Source: Flavobacteriales bacterium
Lineage (GTDB): Bacteria; Bacteroidota; Bacteroidia; Flavobacteriales; JANQLC01
Assembly (NCBI GenBank): GCA_028280815.1
Contig: JANQLC010000008.1
Coordinates: forward strand, 8,492 to 72,491
Direction: 5' to 3'
Length of the DNA: 64,000 nucleotides
The position numbers were made by a program, and so were the translations under genes. The first letter of the stretch is position 1; each line of letters begins with the position of its first letter. Below are positions 3,348-50,641 of the stretch, one piece after another. The notes below the pieces were generated by a model, which made no database searches, was not told where the DNA came from, and saw nothing but the letters and a program-made list of their open reading frames with translations.

Positions 3348-3391
3348 CCTGATACGCCGAGGAGTCGATCTCGTTCTGCGACGAGTAAAAG

Positions 3392-3420
3392 CAAAAAAAG
3401 GCTGCCTCAACGGGCAGCCT
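3392..3420 (-). terminator. rho-independent terminator
   Basis: Minus strand reads AGGCTGCC-cgttga-GGCAGCCT followed by TTTTTTT, 14 nt after the stop of the 3434..3847 gene. Confidence 0.6.
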
Positions 3421-3433
3421 AGTAGGGGTTTAA

Positions 3434-3847
3434 TCAATTCTCAACTCGTAGGTCTGCGCTAAACGATGTTCTATCGAATTGCTTTATGGTAAATTTGCCT
3501 GTACTGCCTGGAACAGGTGTTTTACCGGGTTCGCATAGAACATTATATTTAAGCATACTAGTATGATATTTAAGCTCACCAGTCTCAGGATCTGTACCAC
3601 GTAGTGCTGGTGGGTCGAAATGGAGAAGTTCTGTAGTAAAATTTGTTACAGTAGTAGCAGCCTGTACATCCATTACATTATCTCCTGTAACCTTTGTCCC
3701 CTCAAGGTTGGAAGGTATGGTGTTGAAGCTAAGTGTTGTTGCACCAGCTGCTGATTTGGAAATTTTCGGAATCGGAATCGGATCTTCTAATGTAAGACTT
3801 ATAATCCATTCTGGACCATCCATCAGACCGCCACTTACCACTCTCAA
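3434..3847 (-). CDS. hypothetical protein (low-GC islet)
   Basis: 137-aa ORF with a TTG start in the track; an internal ATG 8 codons later is also possible. No recognisable motif or signal peptide. Followed by a clean terminator. Confidence 0.5.
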   Translation of the reverse strand: MRVVSGGLMDGPEWIISLTLEDPIPIPKISKSAAGATTLSFNTIPSNLEGTKVTGDNVMDVQAATTVTNFTTELLHFDPPALRGTDPETGELKYHTSMLKYNVLCEPGKTPVPGSTGKFTIKQFDRTSFSADLRVEN

Positions 3848-3869
3848 TCCGTATCCGTTTACTGAATCC

Positions 3870-4259
3870 TTAAGTTAGATAGTGCTTCCCTCCGTCAACA
3901 AGTTCACCATCGTCTTTGTAAACATATTGAACCTCGCCTGTTGCTGGAGTAACATGAGCTTCTTTTGATGTAGAAGCATCGGGCATGCGGGCTATTAAAT
4001 ATATATCCCTAAAATCACCTATCATATTACCATTTTTATCATACTCTCGTACTTCGTATGGAAAATACGATTCCATTGAACTAACAGCACCTGAACTACC
4101 GATCGGAGCCGTCGCTGCAGCACCGTTCCTAGTAAAATACGCTTTTGTGCCATCTGCTAAACCCTGAGCGAGTGTCTCTGATAGGGTTAGCTTTCTCCGG
4201 CACGAGTCATCGTCACTACACCCAACGAGCAAAAGCACTGATATGGATGTTAAAATCAA
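3870..4259 (-). CDS. putative lipoprotein (low-GC islet)
   Basis: The N-terminus ILTSISVLLLVGCSDDD has a lipobox-like LVGC. TTG start in the track. An ATG at 4279 is one frame off, across an A6 tract (see findings). Confidence 0.55.
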   Translation of the reverse strand: MILTSISVLLLVGCSDDDSCRRKLTLSETLAQGLADGTKAYFTRNGAAATAPIGSSGAVSSMESYFPYEVREYDKNGNMIGDFRDIYLIARMPDASTSKEAHVTPATGEVQYVYKDDGELVDGGKHYLT

Positions 4260-4482
4260 TACTTTTTTCTGATTTTCATATTGATGACAAATCCAAAGAA
4301 ATTATTTAAATACAAATAAATCTCTCTTTGATCCATCAAGGGCTTGTTATCCACGGCTTGCCAAAGGGCTTGAGTCAAACACCCAAATCCCGGTAACAAA
4401 AACGACAAAAATGAAACCCCAAACACACGCAGTCAAAGCCTTACAAACACAAATAAAACCCTCCGTTCGAGACCCTGGGCCT

Positions 4483-5067
4483 TCAGTCGCGTGAAGGGCA
4501 CCCACGAAATCCCGTACAATCCAAAACACCTGCATACAAACGGTAAAAAACCCAAGCGGACAGCAGGCCGAAAAGCCCGCCGCACAAAATGTCGAGGGGA
4601 AAATGGACGCCGAGGTAAACCCGGCTATAGGCCACGACACCCGCCCAGAGCCACATCGCATAAACCCATTTTGAAGTGCGCCTCAAGACCCACATCATAA
4701 AACCCGCCAATCCAAAAGCGTTTCCCGCATGCCCGCTGGTAAAGCCGTAGGGGCCACCGCAATGGGTCGCAACCAAGCGCACAACACCTGACAACTGCGG
4801 GTCATAACAGGGGCGCAGCCGCTGTAAGCCAATCTTAATCAAACCGGTAACCTGATCTGTAAAGCCGAAGAGCAACAGGGCAAACAAAAGGGCTAAGCCC
4901 CCCTGCCGCCAGCCCAATTTCCACAGCAGCAAAAGGGCGAGCAACCCGTACAAGGGAATCCAAGAACGCTCAGCGGTGGCGAAAAGCCAAAAGCCATCCC
5001 ACTGGGCATTGCCCAGGTGGTTCAAGTGTAAAAACAGGCGCTTGTCGAGCTGAATGAGTTTTTCCAC
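4483..5067 (-). CDS. PAP2-family phosphatase (membrane)
   Basis: 194 aa with the three PAP2 motifs KIGLQRLRP, TSGH and SRVYLGVHFPLD. Confidence 0.85.
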   Translation of the reverse strand: MEKLIQLDKRLFLHLNHLGNAQWDGFWLFATAERSWIPLYGLLALLLLWKLGWRQGGLALLFALLLFGFTDQVTGLIKIGLQRLRPCYDPQLSGVVRLVATHCGGPYGFTSGHAGNAFGLAGFMMWVLRRTSKWVYAMWLWAGVVAYSRVYLGVHFPLDILCGGLFGLLSAWVFYRLYAGVLDCTGFRGCPSRD

Positions 5068-8512: not shown

Positions 8513-8537
8513 GCCGTTCCAATTTTAAGAAGCGAAG

Positions 8538-8545
8538 CAAATATA
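8538..8545 (-). promoter_or_regulatory. candidate -7 box (TATATTTG) for secDF
   Basis: TAnnTTTG match on the minus strand, 25 nt upstream of ATG 8512. It lies between the gene and the A+C-rich island. Confidence 0.4.
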
Positions 8546-8589
8546 TAAAAACGCCGACCAAATCCCTTTGCTTATGCCCCTCAGTCGAT

Positions 8590-8975
8590 CGCATGGGACA
8601 AACCACCCCCTAGTGAAAGCAGGAATTAAACCCACCGACCGACCCAATCCGCCAAGCCAGTCCAAGCAAGCCAACCCATTCAAGCCACAACCGCAAAGCC
8701 ACCCTTTCAAGCCGACTCACCTAAGCAAGCCAATCCAAGTCCTAGGTCGATCAAATCAGGACAGCCCAAGCCGCCAAGCCAAGCAAAACAAGCCAAATCC
8801 GTTAGTCCAATCCAAACCGCTCAGGCAACCCAATCAAGAGAATTAAAACTACCGAGCCAAGTAAACCAAGTCAACCTATCAAATCCACCGACCGACCCAA
8901 TCCGTCAACCAACCTACGATATACACCAAATCGCCACCCACCGGCCAACCGATTCCGACAAATCGAACCGCGGAT
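8590..8975. repeat. strand-asymmetric intergenic island 1 (A+C-rich on + strand)
   Basis: My count of 8641-8700 is A21 C26 G9 T4. Contains a 20-bp direct repeat (8632-8651 / 8885-8904) and words shared with islands 2 and 3. Confidence 0.7.
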
Positions 8976-8981
8976 TGAGCC

Positions 8982-22328: not shown

Positions 22329-22628
22329 CTAATGGGTTTTTGTCTTTTCCTTACACCTGGAAATCTGACGCTTTAAGGTATCGAGTGAGCGGTCTGTTCC
22401 CTCCTCAAAAGTACGACAAATCTTTTTGACTACGATCTCTTCTCTGGGGATCGATAGCTTGGTCTCCACCATTTTATTTCGCTTATCGGGCGTGTTTTTT
22501 ACCTTTAAATAGACTTCAATCGCTATAATTCTATCGCAATAATTCTCGAGCTTGGCATACTTTTTCTCCACGAAGTCGCAGAGCTCGGCTCCTGCGTGAA
22601 AGTTAACGGCTTGTACGCATACGTTCAT
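22329..22628 (-). CDS. hpf: ribosome hibernation promoting factor / RaiA family
   Basis: MNVCVQAVNFHAGAELCDFVEKKYAKLENY is a typical short HPF N-terminus. ATG 22628 is chosen over the track start. Confidence 0.85.
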   Translation of the reverse strand: MNVCVQAVNFHAGAELCDFVEKKYAKLENYCDRIIAIEVYLKVKNTPDKRNKMVETKLSIPREEIVVKKICRTFEEGTDRSLDTLKRQISRCKEKTKTH

Positions 22629-23526
22629 GGCATTTCGATTTTGAGCCACGGGGATGGGCTCGGTTATACATACGTTTCAGATTTTCAATATCGTTTTGCA
22701 GGTAAATTTGTGTGGCTGCCAGTCCCGCATGCCCTAGCAGCTCCTTAATCGAATGCAAGTCCGCCCCCCTTTGAAGCAGGTGGGTGGCAAAGGTGTGGCG
22801 CAACACATGGGGACTTTTCTCGGCTTTTGTCGTCACATGGCTGAGCTGTGAATTCACCAGGCGATAGACGAGTTTGGGGTACAGCGGATTCCCCTTCTCA
22901 GTTAAAAAAAAGGAATCTGCAGTTTCATCTTTCAAATGATCCCGCTCGCATCGGTATCGCATTAAAACACTTTTTAAATGGGTGGTGGTCGGGATCTTGC
23001 GCGCTTTGTTGCGCTTCCCCCATACCAAAAAGAAGCCATCAGCGCCGAGGTCTACATCCTTCAACTGTAAGCCGATGAGCTCAGCCAAGCGCATACCGGT
23101 TTGATAGAAGGTTTCAATAATGGCTCGATTTCGAATGCGCGCAAAGCGCGAGAGATGCTGAAAAAAAACACCGCTTACCGCTTTGTCCATCTCTTCTTCT
23201 GAATAGACGGTATGTATTTTCCTATGCGCTTTGAGCTTGGCAATTCCCAGCGCTGGATTTTCATCGATGGCTTTGACCTCGACGAGAAACCGATAGAAAC
23301 TCTTTAGACTGCTGAGCTTCCGATTGATGCTGTTGTTGTCCAATTTGCGGCTTGCCAAGGACGCAATCCAAGCCCGAATAATGGGTGCATTTACACCTTG
23401 TACGGGGATTCGTCGCTCGTCTAAGTAGCCTTTAAATCCTTCCAAATCGCTCCGGTAAGCACGGACGGTATGCGAAGTGTAACGCCTGGCATACCGAAGG
23501 TGTTCGATGAATTTTTGGATGGGCAT
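22603..23526 (-). CDS. tyrosine-type site-specific recombinase (XerC/XerD family)
   Basis: 307 aa with an N-terminal SAM-like core-binding domain and a C-terminal catalytic region (HVLRHTFATHLL ... LGHAGLAATQIY). Confidence 0.88.
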   Translation of the reverse strand: MPIQKFIEHLRYARRYTSHTVRAYRSDLEGFKGYLDERRIPVQGVNAPIIRAWIASLASRKLDNNSINRKLSSLKSFYRFLVEVKAIDENPALGIAKLKAHRKIHTVYSEEEMDKAVSGVFFQHLSRFARIRNRAIIETFYQTGMRLAELIGLQLKDVDLGADGFFLVWGKRNKARKIPTTTHLKSVLMRYRCERDHLKDETADSFFLTEKGNPLYPKLVYRLVNSQLSHVTTKAEKSPHVLRHTFATHLLQRGADLHSIKELLGHAGLAATQIYLQNDIENLKRMYNRAHPRGSKSKCHERMRTSR

Positions 23527-23556
23527 ACGCTGTAGGAACAGGAGGTAAATTTAATT

Positions 23557-23580
23557 CAATTCGCGGAAAAAAGCGAATTG
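23557..23580. promoter_or_regulatory. perfect 8-bp inverted repeat CAATTCGC-N8-GCGAATTG upstream of the recombinase gene
   Basis: Seen directly in the sequence, 31 nt upstream of ATG 23526. Could be an operator or a stem-loop. Confidence 0.35.
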
Positions 23581-23639
23581 ACAGGCACAGCTTTTCCTGC
23601 ATTTCTCAATTTTTTATCGCGTGGCCCAGGGTTGACCCG

Positions 23640-24470
23640 TCAGGCGTGGTCGTTCCAGTTCGATTGGGCCACATATACGGGATCGGGTTGGATACTTTGG
23701 GGGTGGATGGCTTGGGTTGCTGTGCTATTGCGTTGATTGCGTGGGTTGGGTTGTTTGATGTGCTTTGATAAGCATGACTCTTGCTGTTTTGGATGCTTGA
23801 GCGGATTGCTCGGTCTCTCTTGGTTTTGTCGCATGGGTTTGGTTGGCTCGTTGGGCGTGGTTGTTGCGGTTCGATTGGGCTACGTATCTGTGATTGGGTT
23901 GGTGCGTTGTTGTAATTCGGCCGGGCCGGGTTGGTTGCTTGGGTTGCGTTGGCGTTGCTTGCGTTGGCTGGATTGGATTGGGTTGTTTCATTGTCGGGTC
24001 GCTTTGCGTTGGCGGTTTTCTGTTGCGCTGTTTTGTCGTTGGGCGGATTGGGCTGGCTTGAGCGAAGTCGGGTCGATTGCTCGGGTTGTGTTGCAGTTGG
24101 ATGGGTGGATTGGGATTGTCTGTATTATTCGGTTTGGCGCGACTGCTCCGTCGGTGTGATTCGCAGACTCGGATGGGCGGGTGTTTTGTCGAGTTGTTTC
24201 GTCGCTGCTCAGGTGCGTTGTTGTGTTTTGCTATCGGTTGCGTTTGTGGGCTGTCGCATCCTTGGGTTGAATGGGTTGGTCAGCTTTGCGCTAGCCTGAG
24301 TTGCTTGGATGAGTTGGCTTGAAACGGTGGCTTTGCGGTTGTGACTTAGATGGATTGGTTTGAGTGGGTCGAATTGGCTGGGTTGGATCAGATGGATGAG
24401 CTGGGTTGGATGAGCTGGCTTGAAACGGTGGCTCAGGGCTTTCGGGTTATCGCTTTCGGAATGGGATCGG
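23640..24470. repeat. strand-asymmetric intergenic island 2 (G+T-rich on + strand)
   Basis: My count of 23941-24000 is G25 T24 C8 A3. It fills almost the whole 945-bp gap between the recombinase start and the uvrB stop. Confidence 0.75.
23670..24120 (+). repeat. inverted-repeat arm A (partner 29395..29865)
   Basis: My alignment to the reverse complement of 29395-29865 is colinear with a few indels, and roughly 85-90% identical by eye. Confidence 0.8.
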
Positions 24471-24471
24471 A

Positions 24472-26466
24472 TCAGGTTTTTGCCTTCCAGTATTGCCAGG
24501 CATCGCGCAGGCGGGCGGCTTGGACAAAATCTAGGGCTTTGGCCGCCTGTTCCATGGCTTTTCGGGTTTCGCGCACCTTTTTCTCTATATCTCCTTTGCT
24601 CAGGTAAGCGACATCGAGCTCGTCAGCCGCTTGGTCTCCGCCTGGGGTCGGACAACTGTCCTCCAAGGCTTTCTCAGGGCTTAAACCCACGTCTATCGCT
24701 TTGTGCAGCGGTTGGGGTGTGATGCCGTTCTCCCGGTTGTATGCGATTTGTCTCTCACGCCTGCGCTCGGTTTCTTCCACGGTTCTCCGCATGCTTTCCG
24801 TGGTTTTATCCGCATACATGATGACCCGACCGCTTACATTTCTCGCAGCGCGACCGGCGGTTTGCGTAAGGGCGCGATGGGAGCGCAAAAAACCTTCTTT
24901 GTCCGCATCGAGAATGGCGACCAATGACACCTCGGGCAGGTCTAAGCCTTCGCGGAGTAAATTAATCCCTACCAATACGTCAAAAACGCCTTTTCGCAAC
25001 GCCCGCATGATCGCCACGCGTTCCAATGTGTCGATATCGGAGTGGATGTAGCGCGAGCGAATGCGCATGCGATTCAAGTACTGGGTCAGCTCTTCCGCCA
25101 TCCGCTTGGTCAAGGTGGTGACGAGTACGCGTTCATTCCGCTCTGCGCGCCTTTGAATTTCCGCCATCAAGTCGTCGATCTGATTTTGACTGGGACGCAC
25201 ATCGATTTTGGGGTCGAGCAAGCCGGTGGGGCGAATCAGCTGTTCCACTAGCACCCCTTCGCTCTGCTGCAACTCGTAATCCGCGGGGGTGGCACTGACA
25301 AACAGCACCTGATTTTGCAGGGCTTCAAACTCCTCGAATCGCAACGGGCGGTTGTCCAAAGCGGCGGGCAGGCGAAAGCCGTATTCGACCAAGGTCTCCT
25401 TTCGGCTGCGATCGCCGCCATGCATGGCGTGTACTTGCGGTACGGTTACGTGACTCTCATCCACCACCATCAGGTAATCCGCGGGGAAGTAATCCAAGAG
25501 GCAAAAGGGGCGCATATGGGGTGCTCGCCCATCGAGGTATCGCGAATAATTTTCAATGCCGGCACAATAGCCGAGTTCCTTCATCATTTCCAGATCGAAT
25601 CGCGTCCGTTCTTCCAACCGCTTGGCCTCCAGATTTTTTCCCATATCCCTGAGGTATGCAACCCGATCGACCAGGTCGTGCTGAATCTGCTCCACAGCCG
25701 TTTTCAGGCGTTCGGGAGAAGTGACAAAGAGGTTGGCTGGATAGAGGTTGATCCGGTCATAGCGCTCTAAAACGGAATTGCGCTGCGGGTCAAAGGCCTC
25801 GATGGCTTCGATTTCCAAATCCCAGAAATGGACGCGAATAGCCACATCGGAATAAGCTGGAAAAATATCCACCGTATCTCCCCGCACGCGAAAGTTCCCC
25901 CGGCCGAAATCGGCTTCTGTCCGCGCGTATAAGCTCGATACCAATTGCAGTAAAAACCGGTTTCGCGGTAGGGTGTCCCCGCAGGCGATGGAGATGACAC
26001 TCTTGTGAAACTCGGTGGGATTGCCGATACCGTACAGGCAGGACACGGAGGCGACTACCAAAACATCACGCCTGCCGCTGAGCAGCGAAGAAGTGGTGCT
26101 CAGGCGCAGCTTTTCGATCTCTTCGTCGATGGACAAGTCTTTTTCAATATAGGTGTTCGTCACGGGGATGAAAGCCTCGGGTTGGTAATAATCGTAATAG
26201 GAGACGAAGTACTCTACGGCATTATCGGGGAAAAACTGCTTGAACTCGCCGTAGAGTTGTGCGGCCAAGGTCTTGTTGTGCGCCAATACGAGGGTAGGCC
26301 GTTGCAATTCTCGCACCACATTGGCTACGGTAAAAGTCTTGCCGGAGCCGGTTACGCCCAACAGGGTTTGAAATTTAACACCTTGTCTGAACCCTTCGGT
26401 GAGCTGCGCGATGGCTTGGGGTTGGTCGCCGGTGGGCTGAAAGTCCGAAACGAGCTCGAAATCCAT
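24472..26466 (-). CDS. uvrB: excinuclease ABC subunit B
   Basis: [28 protein letters not shown] Walker A, and C-terminal UVR motif (AARLRDAWQ). ATG 26466 is chosen. Confidence 0.96.
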
Positions 26467-26713
26467 TCGGCAAAAATACGAAGTATAGACCTCTCCCATA
26501 CCCAAGCAGTTCAAACACACAGCGGGCAAAAAAGCTTCAAATCGGTTAAAAATTCCCAATGGAAATTGCGAAAGACCTCATTTCGACATATCTTTATGCC
26601 ATGTAGAAAACAGAAGATGAGACGACCTATGCGCGAGGCAACCCCTAAGGCCAACAAGCCTAAAGCCCTGTTGGATACCCATGGCAGGCTGTGCAGCAAA
26701 TGATAAACACGAC

Positions 26714-27443
26714 ATGGAGGCTTATGCTAAACTAAGAGAGGGTGCTGACTTCTATCTGAGTGAATCATTTTATCATATCAATGAATCGCTACTTGATGAA
26801 TCAGCCGGTATCCTCTTTTCAAAATATCTCCAAGAGATTGATCCGACCGATGTTGATCGAAAAATAGCCGAGAGCGCAAGTATTCCCAAAAGCACTATAG
26901 AATTACTGCGATTCAACTGTAATGAAGTACTCAGTGAAGAGACGACGAGAAAAATGTCTGATGCGTGGCGCAAAGCGCAAATGATATCGCGATTTAAAAA
27001 CTACGGTTCCGGGCTTAACCATATTATAAACTCAATTCACATCCTCGGACATCTCAATAACTTTGGTTTTTTCATTGAAACTATAATCAATCGACATCTG
27101 ATGCTCTTACAAGACTCCAAATCTATAGACGGTTTGAGCTACTCGAGAATAGCTATTGCAAAAATATGTGGAGAAACTGGTCTTTATTTTCAAAGATGAT
27201 TTGAGTTCAAATACAATTCACCTCGACAAAATCACAAACTTATTCAGTTTGAGAAATAAGACCGTCCATTATACACCTCACAATGCAATTAGGCTTAAAC
27301 CGAAAATATCGGAATTATTGCAAATTTGGAAACAAGCGATAGCATTACTCAAAAGACTTGAGGCCATTGAAATGTTTGATGAAGATAAGTTCTCAAAGAG
27401 ATTAGACGAACGCGTAAAAGCCTTTACGCATAAATGGATGTAA
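26714..27443 (+). pseudogene. HEPN-like (Rx4H) protein gene, frameshifted at an A5 run
   Basis: Two overlapping ORFs (26681..27199 and 27156..27443) join if one A is added at 27160-27164 (..SRIAIAKKYVEKLVFIFKDD..). The second part carries LRNKTVHY, an RNxxxH motif. The region is low in GC. Confidence 0.55.
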
Positions 27444-27617
27444 AAAAGCTGGTTCTGCCTACAAAGGCTATCAGGCTTCAGACTGGGAAGAAGTATTTTA
27501 ACAGAAGGTTGAAGGTACCGAAAATCAAACTAAAACAACATAAAAACAAAGAGTCTTTATTGCGCTCAAGACGACAGTGCAAAGCAGAATCAGACGGTTC
27601 TCAGTCAACTGGCCCAC

Positions 27618-28709
27618 CTAAGCGCTACACCTAAAATGGACGACATCCCCGTCTTGTACGACGTATTGCTTGCCCTCTATGCGCATTTTTCCCGCTTCCC
27701 TCGCCCGAGCTGCCGAACCCTGGGCTATGTAATCCCCATAAGCGATGACCTCGGCGCGAATAAACCCCTTTTCAAAATGGGAGTGAATCACCCCCGCCGC
27801 CCGTGGCGCCCGATCGCCTTTGTGGATCGTCCAGGCGCGGACCTCTTCAGCGCCAGCTGTAAAGTAGGTCTGTAGGTTTAACAAGCGATAGGCGGATCGA
27901 ATCAACTGGGCGGCTCCCGGCTCCTCGAGTCCCATGTCTGTGAGAAACAGCTGACGCGCCGCCAAATCGTCCAGGGCTGCGATCTCCGCCTCAGCGGCGA
28001 CGGCCAAAACCAGCGTTTCAGACGGCTCGGCGGCAATGGCTCCCCGAAGCCGTTTCGTATGGGCGTTTCCGGTTTTTACAGCGCTTTCATCCACATTGCA
28101 GACATATAAGACGGGCTTGCTCGTCAAGAATTGAAAGCCATCCACCCGAGCGCGATCAGCTGCCGAGAATCCGATGCGCCGAACCGGCTCGCCCGATTCC
28201 AGATGCTGGCGGATAACGCGCAGCAGTTCCCATTCCTGCTGCGCCACCGGGTTGCCTGAACGGGCGGCGCGTCGCACCTTGTCCATATGCCTGACCGCCG
28301 TTTCCAAATCCTTGAGTTGCAACTCGAGATCGACGATCTCCTTATCTCGAACCGGATCGACCGAACCATCGACATGGGTGACATGGTCGTCTTCAAAGCA
28401 GCGCAATACGTGAATCAGGGCATTCGTCTCGCGGAGGTGTGCCAAAAATGAGTTGCCCAAACCCTCCCCTCGGCTCGCACCGCTGACGAGTCCGGCTATA
28501 TCCACCACTTCAACCGTTGCGGGAACCACACGCTGGGGTTTCACCAATTCGGCCAACTGATGCAGCCGCGCATCCGGCACCTGTACCCTACCGATATTGG
28601 GCTCAATCGTACAAAAGGGAAAGTTTGCCGCTTGGGCCTTCGCCGTGCTCAAGCTGTTGAAAAGCGTGGATTTTCCCACGTTGGGCAAGCCCAAGATGCC
28701 GCATTTCAT
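27618..28709 (-). CDS. ychF: redox-regulated ATPase YchF
   Basis: MKCGILGLPNVGKSTLFN start and a C-terminal TGS-like domain. ATG 28709 is chosen. Confidence 0.95.
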   Translation of the reverse strand: MKCGILGLPNVGKSTLFNSLSTAKAQAANFPFCTIEPNIGRVQVPDARLHQLAELVKPQRVVPATVEVVDIAGLVSGASRGEGLGNSFLAHLRETNALIHVLRCFEDDHVTHVDGSVDPVRDKEIVDLELQLKDLETAVRHMDKVRRAARSGNPVAQQEWELLRVIRQHLESGEPVRRIGFSAADRARVDGFQFLTSKPVLYVCNVDESAVKTGNAHTKRLRGAIAAEPSETLVLAVAAEAEIAALDDLAARQLFLTDMGLEEPGAAQLIRSAYRLLNLQTYFTAGAEEVRAWTIHKGDRAPRAAGVIHSHFEKGFIRAEVIAYGDYIAQGSAARAREAGKMRIEGKQYVVQDGDVVHFRCSA

Positions 28710-28728
28710 ACCGCCGATCAGATCACCG

Positions 28729-28736
28729 CAAAGATA
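28729..28736 (-). promoter_or_regulatory. candidate -7 box (TATCTTTG) for ychF
   Basis: TAnnTTTG match on the minus strand, 19 nt upstream of ATG 28709. Confidence 0.4.
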
Positions 28737-28789
28737 GGGGTTTTGAAAGCGCTCCATGGGGACAAACGCCAAAAAACGAGCCGCCTTTC

Positions 28790-30420
28790 AAGTCATCCCC
28801 AAGCGGCAAAGCAAAAAGCACACCGCTTTTCAAACCACTCCGCAGAGATAAATACCCAAAAGACAAGTCCCCATTTTCAAATTGACTTACAGAGACAGAC
28901 GCCAAAACAACCGGTTTCAGTCTTCAAACCCATACGAGGGGCAAAGACAAAAACAGCGCTCCTTTTCCAGTCAACACAAAAGAGCCAAACCGAAAAAACA
29001 AGCCAGCCCAGCCAACCCATGCAAGCCAATTCGCCCAGGCAACAACGCAACAGTGCAAACGACCCAATTAACGCAATCACGCATGCGTGACAAACAACCC
29101 GCCAACGCAATCAAACCAACCCAGTACACCGTATGGTAAAAAAGACCCACCCAAAAAACCCGACGAAAGACAAGGGACGAAAAACAACACAGCCCAACCG
29201 AGCAGTCGCAACAACCCACTGAACCACGCAGCGAGAGAAACCAGGTCTTTCTAAATGCCAGATAGAAACGCAAAAACAGTTCCGAGCGCGCAAAGGCTCT
29301 GAAAAGAGCTAAACCCATCCAAGCCAAGTCAACCCAAATCAAATGATGCAAACAAGCCTAATCCACCCAACCTACGCAAAGCGACCCAATCACCCGCACG
29401 ACAACCCAATCAAGCCATCCAATTGCAACCCAATCCGACTCCACTGAACAGTCCAATCCGCCCAACGACAAAACAGCGCAACAGCAAACCGCCAACGCAA
29501 AGCGACCCGACAATGAAACAACCCAATCTAAGCCAGCCAACGCAAGCAACGCAAAGCGAACCAAGCAGTTAAGCAACGCCAATGCAACCCAAGCAACCAA
29601 CCCGGCCTAGCCAAATTACAACAACGCACCAACCCAAAACCACCAACCCAATCACAGATACCTAGCCCAATCCAACCGCAACGACCACGACCAACCAGCC
29701 AACCAAAACCATGCGACAAAACCATAGAGAGACCGAGCAATCCGATCAAGCATCCAAAACAGCAAGAGTCTTGCTTATCAAAGCACATCGAACAACCCAA
29801 CCCACGCAAGCAACGCAATAGCACAGCAACCCAATCCAAGCCACTCAATCCAAATCCCGCATATAACAACTGTAGAAAAGACGAATGCAAAAAGCCGATG
29901 AAGGACAAGGGACAAAGACAACCCAACCTACCCCACCGACACGGCCAAGCCAGCCCTGGACTCGCCCAAGCCAATCAGCGGAAAAACAAACGCAAAAAAC
30001 TCGCCCGAACCGATCACGGGAAGGGCGAACGAGAAAAAACCCAACATGCGAAATCCCAAATGCACCCGTGCACAAACGAGAGCGGAATGACAACTTTCAA
30101 TTGACACCCATACACGCCAAACATAAAAACCCCACCCAGTGGACCCGACGAGGAAGAGCCCAATCAACACGACAACCCACGCAACGATAAAACAAACCCT
30201 TTTTCAAACTACTATGGCACAGGGATAAAAGAGCCGTCTTGACCGCTCCAAACCGCCACAAAAGGACAAGCGCAAAAAACCGGCCTTTCAAGCGCGGACG
30301 CGAATCGAGAAATAAGGAAGTGGAAAAACCTAGAGCGCGCAGCCATTCCACAAAGGATAAAGGCAAACGAATCCCCAACCGGGATAGTCGAGAATCCGCA
30401 TCTCCGCAAAAGCGGCTAAA
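28790..30420. repeat. strand-asymmetric intergenic island 3 (A+C-rich, T-poor on + strand)
   Basis: My count of 29401-29460 is A21 C24 T9 G6. It occupies most of a 1.77-kb gene-free gap between ychF and the transketolase genes. Confidence 0.75.
29395..29865 (-). repeat. inverted-repeat arm B (partner 23670..24120)
   Basis: See arm A. The ORF-track artefact peptides share MVAWVALALL..LAGLDWVVSLSGRFALAV.CCAVLSLGGL between 23931..24299(+) and 29358..29600(-). Confidence 0.8.
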
Positions 30421-30451
30421 GTCATGGGTGTCTTCCCACGCCTTAAAGGAC

Positions 30452-30459
30452 TATATTTG
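30452..30459 (+). promoter_or_regulatory. candidate -7 box (TATATTTG) for the transketolase genes
   Basis: TAnnTTTG match 18 nt upstream of ATG 30478. Confidence 0.4.
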
Positions 30460-30477
30460 CAAAAAAATGGAACCGTC

Positions 30478-31329
30478 ATGCGCAGTGTTGAAGAGATGCG
30501 AATGCTGGTCACGCAAACGCGCCGAGACATCTTACGAATGGTACACGCAGCCAACAGCGGACATCCCGGGGGGTCGCTGGGCACCACCGAGTTTTTTATC
30601 GCACTCTATCACGCCGTCTTACAGTATGATCCAGCGCATTTTACGATGGATGGAAAAGGCGAAGACTTGTTTTTCTTATCCAACGGCCACATCTCACCGG
30701 TGTATTACAGCACCTTAGCCCGGGCGGGTTATTTTCCAATCGCCGAGTTGTCCAGCTTTCGCCAAATCGATTCGCGCTTGCAGGGACATCCCACCACGCA
30801 TGAGGGCCTGCCCGGCATTCGCATCTCCAGCGGTTCCTTGGGTCAGGGCATGAGTGTGGCCATCGGTGCAGCACAAGCCAAAAAATTAAACGAAGACCCA
30901 CAGCTGGTCTACAGCCTGCATGGCGACGGCGAATTGGACGAGGGGCAAAACTGGGAAGCCATCCTGTACGCCGCCGGCAAAGGGGTGGACAACTACATCG
31001 CTACGATCGACTACAACGGCAGGCAAATCGACGGCGATACCGATGCGGTCATGCCTTTGGGGAATCTGCGAGCCAAATTCGAGGCTTTTGGTTGGATTGT
31101 GTGGGACGAGCCCGATGGAAACGACTTGAACTGCAACATCCAAACGCTGAAAAACGCCAAACGATCGACTGGCCAGGGCAAGCCCATCGCCATTCTCCTG
31201 CACACCGAAATGGGGCACGGGGTGGATTTTATGATGGGCACGCACGCCTGGCATGGCAAAGCGCCTGACGATGCGCAATTGGCCAGCGCCCTGGCACAAA
31301 ATCCGGAAACCAGACTCAGCGATTATTAA
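30478..31329 (+). CDS. transketolase, N-terminal (thiamine-diphosphate-binding) subunit
   Basis: SGHPGGSLG and GDGELDEGQNWEA motifs. This is a split transketolase. ATG 30478 is chosen. Confidence 0.92.
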   Translation: MRSVEEMRMLVTQTRRDILRMVHAANSGHPGGSLGTTEFFIALYHAVLQYDPAHFTMDGKGEDLFFLSNGHISPVYYSTLARAGYFPIAELSSFRQIDSRLQGHPTTHEGLPGIRISSGSLGQGMSVAIGAAQAKKLNEDPQLVYSLHGDGELDEGQNWEAILYAAGKGVDNYIATIDYNGRQIDGDTDAVMPLGNLRAKFEAFGWIVWDEPDGNDLNCNIQTLKNAKRSTGQGKPIAILLHTEMGHGVDFMMGTHAWHGKAPDDAQLASALAQNPETRLSDY

Positions 31330-48886: not shown

Positions 48887-50530
<1,644 letters not shown>

Positions 50531-50641
50531 ATAGACAAGACTCAAAGCGCATTTTATCGATCGCATACGATCACCTCTCCTATCTTACGCCTTATGTATA
50601 GCTGACTTTAGCTTTTCGATCACAGCTCAGCGGCCGATTTT

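Follow-up and report, generated by a model that had tools for sequence, protein, structure and literature searches.

The locus and its inverted repeat

The window analysed in this study is a 64,000-nucleotide (64-kb) stretch of contig JANQLC010000008.1 from an uncultured Flavobacteriales-like bacterium (assembly GCA_028280815.1), and the feature under study is a pair of long imperfect inverted repeats, here called arms A and B, that bracket uvrB and ychF. Along the + strand, the locus begins with a gene for a tyrosine recombinase of the XerC/D family (22603..23526, - strand; the xer-like gene), followed by arm A, uvrB (24472..26466, - strand), a low-GC variable cargo of two overlapping open reading frames (ORFs; 26681..27443, + strand), ychF (27618..28709, - strand), arm B and the gene for the N-terminal subunit of transketolase (30424..31329, + strand). 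Each arm is embedded in a longer, species-specific non-coding tract. Tract A (23580..24455) lies between uvrB and the xer-like gene, and tract B (28743..30451) lies between the divergent ychF and transketolase genes, the latter being its right boundary. A diverged third member of the family, copy C (~8609..8966), was detected by alignment and nhmmer in the spacer between the DUF3467 gene and secDF, in the same orientation as arm B.

When the arms were aligned by Smith-Waterman, the high-identity part of arm A (23673..24120), which is G+T-rich on the + strand and A+C-rich on the sense strand of uvrB, was colinear with the reverse complement of that of arm B (29400..29864, A+C-rich on the + strand), with 93.6 % identity over 422 aligned columns and several indels. 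The score of 588 compares with 39.5 ± 6.4 (maximum 58) in 100 dinucleotide-preserving shuffles, so the match reflects homology and not composition. A repeat search of the window returned four colinear, ungapped inverted blocks (23708-24055 versus 29449-29838) of 67-120 nt and 93-94 % complementarity each, and blastn of the window against itself joined 29400-29864 and 24120-23673 in a single alignment (80.2 % over 490 columns, 67 of them gap positions). The colinear repeats of about 450 bp around the uvrB/ychF block given in a preliminary description of this DNA were thus recovered by the repeat search, by blastn and by Smith-Waterman, and the refutation considered there, that the similarity is only compositional, failed. 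Other details of that description held as well: the artefact peptide MVAWVALALL...LAGLDWVVSLSGRFALAV is common to the two ORFs named (23931..24299 on the + strand and 29358..29600 on the - strand), the DNA between the arms contains a low-GC insert (GC 0.33-0.44 at ~26600-27600), and arm A lies close to the recombinase gene (147 bp from its ATG; previously 145). The insertions reported for arm B are real, but there are more than two and they do not measure 18 and 24 bp; relative to arm A they are ~5, 1, 14, 27, 14 and 19 nt long.

Weaker colinearity (76-79 %) continues beyond the high-identity block as far as 24154 in A and 29194 in B. This inner part aligns with A 24096-24154 (score 42 versus 18.6 ± 3.0). 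Arm B, the weakly conserved inner part and a B-specific stretch of ~110 nt make up the whole arm-A-homologous segment of tract B (29195..29871), and the match of the nhmmer family profile at arm B covers 29327-29864.

Both arms were assembled independently in other samples. Tara contig L087 matches 23711-24597 at 98.3 % and continues into the 3' end of uvrB. Arm B has its counterpart in Tara contig L088 (98.0 % over 29342-29843), in which a cluster of variants, described below, is of the arm-A type. In addition, Logan contig L081, from the same organism, spans window positions 24022-29227. As the two arms are distinct in independent assemblies, the repeat is not an assembly artefact.

Strand-skewed tracts that contain the repeat copies

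All copies of the repeat lie inside non-coding tracts with 72-80 % A+C on one strand, which can be described as degenerate (CCAAN)n on that strand and (NTTGG)n on the other. Tract A has ~72 % G+T on the + strand and internal units of ~210 bp, and tract B has ~73 % A+C on the + strand. Measured over the entire intergenic spacers, 23527-24471 contains 72 % G+T on the + strand (A 12 %, C 16 %) and 28758-30423 contains 73 % A+C. Additional A+C-rich patches occur at 8513-8981, ~4350-4600 and 50200-50550. Of the five tracts in the window, tract A is the only one not to be A+C-rich on the + strand.

The words CCAA, CAACC, CAAGC and CCAATC are enriched in the tracts, and a short-unit periodicity is seen in the autocorrelation of CAA and CC, with peaks at lags 5, 9, 14, 19 and 24. 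TRF found only weak arrays, with periods of 9-14, all of them degenerate (63-93 % matches), and no pure run. Such tracts are rare elsewhere: 2.2 Mb of DNA from 165 other Bacteroidota loci contained four tracts of at least 200 bp at 70 % skew (the longest 350 bp), compared with five in the 64-kb window, including tracts of 900 and 1500 bp. A genome-wide mutational skew was ruled out as their cause by the four-fold degenerate sites, which are 42-47 % keto on the sense strand in genes of either strand.

The arms have no coding potential, because the indels between them (1, 5, 14, 19 and 27 nt) disrupt all reading frames. No match to the tracts was found in Rfam, either at the gathering threshold or at E-values up to 1. 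Folding of arm A was no better than that of shuffled sequences on either strand (z = +0.54 and +0.38), and neither arm contains a local inverted repeat of at least 8 nt within 40 nt. Promoter and terminator counts equalled those of shuffled sequences in a scan that models sigma-70 promoters and not those of the Bacteroidota type. A deamination-like directional conversion into skewed sequence, suggested by the pair 23630-23691 / 23841-23902, was considered and dropped: the 27 substitutions between arms A and B show no directional bias and there were too few parent-derivative pairs.

A perfect 9-bp hairpin (TCAATTCGC...GCGAATTGA) is present on the minus strand at 23556-23581, at the xer-proximal end of tract A, and is the sole terminator-like structure from the uvrB stop to the xer start. 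If uvrB transcription reads through to this hairpin, an A+C-rich 3' untranslated region (UTR) of ~900 nt would be implied. Immediately upstream of ychF (28760-28990, minus strand) there are five tandem units of ~45 bp, each with TTGAAA...TTTTTG, which might be duplicated promoter-proximal sequence. A related motif, GGCTTGAAASGGTGGCT, occurs twice in tract A (24305-24332 and 24406-24433) and once in copy C (8695-8724).

A third copy and the range of the family

Copy C is a shortened, internally deleted version of the repeat. It scores 81 in alignment with arm A (versus 29 ± 4) and 74 with arm B (versus 31 ± 4), with colinearity over ~320 bp, and it is carried by Tara strains at 99.8-99.97 %. 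The copies are mosaic, since A and B have one part in common and A and C another. In a three-way alignment of A, B and C, we found neither common termini nor terminal inverted repeats (TIRs), and no inverted repeats within copies. No target duplication was readable at the junctions of copy C or of A.

With an nhmmer profile built from A, B and C, only these three copies and their strain variants were detected, and nothing in ~42 kb of DNA from the closest relative or in the 2.2 Mb from 165 other Bacteroidota loci. When the artefact peptides were searched against a collection of 5.8 billion proteins, only two Tara contigs of the same species were returned. The plasmid, phage and IMG/VR collections gave no match to the repeat, and an exact 24-mer from the arms gave none in the metagenome collection. 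The existence of a third copy means that the family is dispersed and that the bracket consists of two of its members. The idea that the arms form a dedicated bracket of uvrB and ychF is not supported, given a further copy 15 kb away at 8609-8966.

Gene order and spacers in the relatives

The closest sampled relative (the sister genome), with a UvrB 86 % identical, is represented by contigs L082 and L171 from one 72.5-kb ENA scaffold. One of the best non-self UvrB matches (86 % identical) is labelled as a Flavobacteriales metagenome-assembled genome (MAG), and the organism was placed among Flavobacteriales-like Bacteroidota. Scans of genome and metagenome contigs with UvrB gave at most 71 % identity among the matches listed.

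Gene order and orientation in the sister scaffold are the same as in the window throughout: TPR, HSDR_N, transketolase C, transketolase N, ychF, variable cargo, uvrB, xer and hpf, continuing with the tRNAs, tuf, secE, nusG, rplKAJL, rpoB, rpoC, DUF3467, secDF, tatA and PAP2. Nucleotide homology ends exactly at the tracts, at 23579/24456 for tract A and at 28742/30452 for tract B. The spacers between transketolase and ychF, between uvrB and xer, and between DUF3467 and secDF measure 103, 95 and 45 bp in the sister genome and 1709, 876 and 428 bp in the window, respectively. On this sequence comparison, species-specific tracts have swollen at least three core-gene intergenic spacers in this bacterium. 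All three repeat copies are missing from the sister genome and therefore arose after the split from the sister lineage.

Since the sister genome has the same order and orientation without the arms, uvrB and ychF are ancestral residents and the arms do not delimit a mobile unit. The large TIR-bounded unit proposed in the preliminary description is contradicted by this, as ychF and uvrB keep their place and orientation in that genome with no arm beside them. The description had also asked whether uvrB-ychF is inverted or absent in relatives, and in the sister genome it is neither. In a composite transposon the enclosed genes would be absent from the empty site; here the sister genome differs only in the cargo between ychF and uvrB. 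The arms contain no transposase, being non-coding with frame-breaking indels, and no outer target duplication was found: the outer flanks of A and B show no significant match to each other (score 21 versus 18.1 ± 2.4).

The xer-like gene lies beside hpf, tRNAs and tuf in three relatives (contigs L082, L083 and L084), all without arms and with spacers of 95-300 bp. As a conserved neighbour in arm-free genomes, its closeness to arm A is a coincidence of position. The link between recombinase and arms suggested earlier thus loses its basis, because the xer-hpf-tRNA-tuf arrangement is present in repeat-free relatives and the arms contain no palindromic core-like site.

Two of the relatives, L082 (11970-12070) and L084 (3400-3631), carry a tandem duplicate of the final 49-55 nt of uvrB in the uvrB-xer spacer (scores 73 and 105 versus ~14 ± 2). 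In the second copy the stop codon TAA is changed to CAA, and the copies are separated by A+C-rich repeats, with ~45-bp units (GCAATAACCCCACTGCGATAACCC...) in L084. This makes the spacer a recurrent duplication site. Tract A itself was considered as a tandem amplification of the uvrB 3' end and rejected, as no duplicate is detectable in the window (score 18 versus 18.2 ± 2.4). A possible ychF inversion in contig L085 was also rejected, as the 365-amino acid (aa) gene there is not YchF.

Variation among strains

Coding and cargo DNA diverge by 0.17-0.5 % between strains (contigs L089 and L090). When L087 was compared with tract A over 887 columns, there was one mismatch and a single gap, which corresponds to the loss of one unit (24393-24406) of a 14-bp tandem repeat (TGGATGAGCTGGGT/CT; 24393..24420, detected by TRF) whose copy number is strain-variable. 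Judged from the sequence, this loss is a product of replication slippage, and such a polymorphism in unit number between strains is what characterizes simple-sequence tracts.

L088 differs from window arm B by eight mismatches clustered within ~130 columns. All eight carry the arm-A state, and the B-specific insertions are kept. The cluster is best explained as a putative gene-conversion patch between the inverted arms, which indicates that the arms recombine with each other. No crossover was seen in any contig: L087 is A-type throughout and runs into uvrB, and the inner end of L088 runs into B-specific sequence. Among L081, L087 and L088, no hybrid arm with outer-A and inner-B sequence was found. 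There was also no inverted isomer, every contig that reaches an arm junction (these same three, few and short) having the arrangement of the window. The proposed inversion of the uvrB-ychF segment therefore gains no support from these few short contigs, nor from the sister genome with its identical orientation, although it may still occur at low frequency.

Positions 1-95 of L088 are not the flank found in the window. Instead, the central portion of another B-type unit is joined there to a start resembling that of arm A (GGTTGGATGCTTTGGGGGTGGATGG), and this joint is either a tandem arm duplication in that strain or a short-read chimera.

Origin of arm B and competing explanations

The arm-A-homologous segment of tract B is flanked by direct repeats of ~58 nt, the left one at 29136..29194 and the right one at 29872..29928, which share 46 of 59 aligned positions. 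They score 49 versus 18.8 ± 2.9 (0 of 500 shuffles reach this value), abut the ends of the arm-A homology, are specific to locus B and are absent from tracts A and C. Their identity of 78 % (22 % divergence) equals that of the inner part of the copy, which was not homogenised (76-79 %). Such equal divergence fits a single old insertion in which ~58 nt of target were duplicated, the outer 450 bp having been converted at a later time.

The observations are that the repeat exists and has a third copy, that the sister genome lacks it, that the gene order is ancestral, that the arms do not code, that strains differ by slippage and that one version of arm B is a conversion-like mosaic. On this basis we consider that the arms are probably paralogous copies of a species-specific, non-coding, strand-skewed repeat, and that the pair is incidental, having most likely arisen by template switching and been kept similar by conversion. 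An inverted copy of sequence 5.3 kb away, a flanking duplication and microhomology tracts of opposite polarity are together the trace expected of a replication template switch, which is the most likely origin of the inverted pair. In such an event, tract A (uvrB-xer) and tract B (ychF-transketolase) would have existed beforehand with opposite strand polarity. A nascent A+C-rich strand at tract B would have annealed, through CCAAN/NTTGG microhomology, to the G+T-rich + strand of tract A 5.3 kb off, copied ~0.5 kb of it and returned slightly upstream of its point of departure, leaving an inverted copy with a ~58-nt duplication of tract B on both sides. The direction of copying would thus be from A to B. 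Ectopic gene conversion could later have re-homogenised the outer 450 bp to ~94 %, while the remainder of the copy and the flanking duplication would have decayed to 76-79 % and the tracts would have gone on changing by slippage. The arms may serve as substrates for RecA-type exchange, for which conversion was seen and inversion was not. The neighbouring XerC/D-family gene would have no role in this scheme, and we infer that the inverted orientation is incidental and that the pair has no dedicated function.

Several observations weigh against this template-switch account. The direct repeats are equalled in alignment score by one other pair of 120-nt windows within tract B, and weak but significant similarity between A and B is found to the left of the left repeat (A 24186-24279 versus B 29012-29105; score 43 versus 24 ± 3.4). 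The family is internally repetitive, and the boundary of the insert is blurred as a result. Copy C lies 15-20 kb from A and B, with no target duplication readable at its junctions. Moreover, the skew of the tracts finds no explanation in a genome-wide mutational bias, given the composition of the four-fold sites, and the evidence base is 64 kb of this genome together with a handful of short contigs from other samples.

The main rival is a transposition-like spread. The repeat could be a non-autonomous mobile element, resembling a miniature inverted-repeat transposable element (MITE) or of an undescribed type, that was moved by a trans-acting enzyme into three intergenic sites, the inverted pair being two opposite insertions. 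There are indeed three copies in 64 kb, all in core-gene intergenic spacers and all missing from the sister genome; copy B lies between direct repeats of target sequence, and copy C is shortened and internally deleted, as is common in decaying elements. We nevertheless regard this explanation as unlikely. Target duplications made by the transposases of insertion sequence (IS) and MITE families are usually far shorter than the 58 nt observed here, the three-way alignment revealed no terminal inverted repeats or common termini, and no transposase gene is nearby. In addition, plasmids, phages, viral contigs and the 165 other Bacteroidota loci gave no match, and the mosaic relationship, with one part common to A and B and another to A and C, does not suit a mobile element. 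A more radical proposal, to which we give a distinctly low probability, is that the skewed tracts of this uncultured marine lineage of Flavobacteriales are DNA of a novel type, which propagates itself or is actively generated, through composition-guided spread between spacers or through a local strand-specific process. If this were true, pairs of opposite polarity, A and B among them, would cause blocks of core genes to flip or to be exchanged.

Explanations in which the arms are active or functional fare less well. RecA-dependent homologous recombination between the arms might reversibly invert the uvrB-cargo-ychF block, with both isomers present in the population. Inverted repeats of ~450 bp at 94 % identity suffice for homologous recombination, so the arms are an adequate substrate, and the conversion patch in L088 shows exchange between them; however, the gene orientation equals that of the sister genome, L087 carries an all-A arm joined to uvrB, L088 has a B-type inner end joined to B-specific sequence, L081 has the window arrangement and no outer-A/inner-B hybrid arm occurs among the contigs, which renders standing inversion improbable. 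Somewhat more doubtful still is a function of the tracts or arms themselves, as unstructured A+C-rich UTRs or spacers, as the source of a ~450-bp duplex in a ychF-uvrB read-through transcript (the G+U-rich 5' end pairing with the A+C-rich 3' end), or as G+T-rich polar Chi-like or protein-binding arrays. Their length and skew are very rare in other Bacteroidota (four tracts in 2.2 Mb versus five in the window), they are kept almost unchanged in strains of several samples, uvrB has no terminator-like hairpin before 23581-23556 at the far end of tract A, and all but one of the five tracts have their A+C-rich strand in common (+). Against a function, the sister lineage has nothing similar at the three sites, the changes are mostly indels and conversion, as for unconstrained simple sequence, and there is neither a structural signal nor an Rfam family. 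The polarity is also inconsistent with respect to the genes: A lies downstream of uvrB and is A+C-rich in the sense direction, whereas the sense direction is G+T-rich in B and C, which are found upstream of ychF and secDF. Site-specific inversion by the neighbouring XerC/D-family recombinase at sites within the arms is hardly credible. Its gene lies only 147 bp from arm A, but it occupies the same place beside hpf, tRNAs and tuf in relatives without arms. Tyrosine recombinases use a dyad-symmetric core site; no local inverted repeat of at least 8 nt within 40 nt exists in the arms, and a strand with ~12 % A can presumably hardly hold such a site. The arms are also long and degenerate, unlike the sites of invertases. 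In summary of these alternatives, nothing that we found in the arms points to an invertible switch, to a TIR-bounded element or to an Xer substrate, and "an old inverted duplication", the other option named in the preliminary description, comes near to what the evidence shows.

Comparison with known systems

The pair resembles template-switch duplications, as described by the fork stalling and template switching/microhomology-mediated break-induced replication (FoSTeS/MMBIR) models and by strand switching at bacterial quasipalindromes. An inverted copy of sequence 5.3 kb away is found at a second site, microhomology is abundant at both sites, and an apparent target duplication flanks the insert. 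It differs in that its junctions are not nucleotide-sharp, the sequence being simple and old (76-79 %), and in that the length and the duplication are deduced from one genome and not from an observed event.

With the REP/BIME, ERIC, BOX, Correia/NEMIS and RUP families, the repeat shares a non-coding, intergenic location, several copies in both orientations, a modular or mosaic structure and restriction to a lineage. What identifies members of those families, however, which are 30-300 bp long, is a palindromic or hairpin unit or the presence of terminal inverted repeats. The repeat in the window is 0.36-0.7 kb long with 72-80 % A+C on one strand and has no TIRs and no hairpin signal, so it lacks the hairpin that defines such families. 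The contingency loci of Haemophilus influenzae, (CAAT)n, (CCAA)n and (CAAC)n, are similar in their short A+C-rich units and in slippage (of a 14-bp unit here). In contrast to them, the sequences in the window are degenerate, 0.4-1.7 kb long and intergenic; they do not lie in reading frames or promoters and are not placed to switch genes.

Invertible switches such as Escherichia coli fimS (FimB/FimE) and the Bacteroides invertons (Mpi/Tsr-type) also have inverted repeats that flank a segment, with a tyrosine recombinase gene beside one of them. However, the known switches use short (~9-30 bp) specific inverted repeats around promoters or alternative gene segments and a dedicated recombinase, whereas here degenerate simple sequence makes up arms of 450 bp on either side of two housekeeping genes, in only one observed orientation. 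Short, specific, core-bearing repeats are absent, and the recombinase gene is also present in L082, L083 and L084, which have no arms.

Overall, uvrB and ychF sit at their ancestral position, and it is the spacers between highly conserved core genes (rpoC/DUF3467-secDF, uvrB-xer and ychF-transketolase) that this species has inflated with long, extremely strand-asymmetric simple sequence. These tracts appear to copy pieces of one another, to convert one another and to slip. The locus may therefore serve as a compact natural example of how opposite-polarity, microhomology-rich tracts can create large inverted repeats around essential genes, which are raw material for inversions. There is a practical side as well, because the skewed tracts break short-read assemblies. 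Logan contigs L081, L172 and L173, from the same organism, end in or beside such tracts (window positions 24022, 29227 and 8867). Since short-read contigs end there, the tracts fragment assemblies and should be under-represented in MAGs.

Genes at the locus and other skewed regions

The product of the xer-like gene contains the Pfam domains Phage_integrase (PF00589) and a SAM-like domain (PF02899). Its full-length match to the XerC model TIGR02224 (280.4 bits) is below the equivalog cut-off of 335.15, and that to the XerD model TIGR02225 (238.2 bits) is below the cut-off of 329.6. By these profile matches it is a member of the XerC/D-like tyrosine recombinase family that reaches the equivalog cut-off of neither XerC nor XerD.

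The genes uvrB, ychF and the transketolase N-terminal subunit gene were identified with Pfam. UvrB (664 aa) is identical to protein record P0001. YchF has 363 aa when read from the MKCG start; gene callers extend the gene to 28757, and the protein has 379 aa in L081. The use of this longer start by gene callers explains why the exact 363-aa YchF has no database record.

The two cargo ORFs (172 and 91 aa) belong to no known family and gave no match in Pfam (E-value up to 1) or NCBIfam (E-value up to 0.01). The label "HEPN-like" given earlier to the 172-aa ORF (26681-27199) is accordingly unsupported in both databases at these limits. The spot between ychF and uvrB (window 26493-27615) holds a different cargo in each lineage. 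In L082 (4686-9974) it contains an 885-aa Big_2/LRR protein and a repeat-rich stretch, and in L084 (1-1419) and L085 (1-3337) it contains a SocA/Panacea-domain antitoxin-like gene, a 146-aa ORF and a coiled-coil protein. A G+T-rich patch in L082 (8200-8560) corresponds to a low-complexity repeat, rich in T/E/K/P, that the gene for the Big_2/LRR protein encodes on the opposite strand; the patch includes an assembly gap (a run of N). This sister patch is coding, unlike the tracts in the window.

Two further regions of the window contain skewed sequence. The A+C/A-rich tract at 50201-50550, upstream of the enolase gene, contains a 15-bp tandem repeat (CCAAGTCCTAAAAAA, 4.3 copies), also with a 29-bp period, and its sequence is unrelated to the A/B/C family. 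Between the PAP2 and O-methyltransferase genes, 3350-4542 is a species-specific insertion of 1193 bp, compared with 41 bp in the sister genome. It contains a 129-aa ORF (3434-3823, minus strand) without a Pfam match, an AT-rich stretch and part of the A+C-rich patch at 4351-4600.

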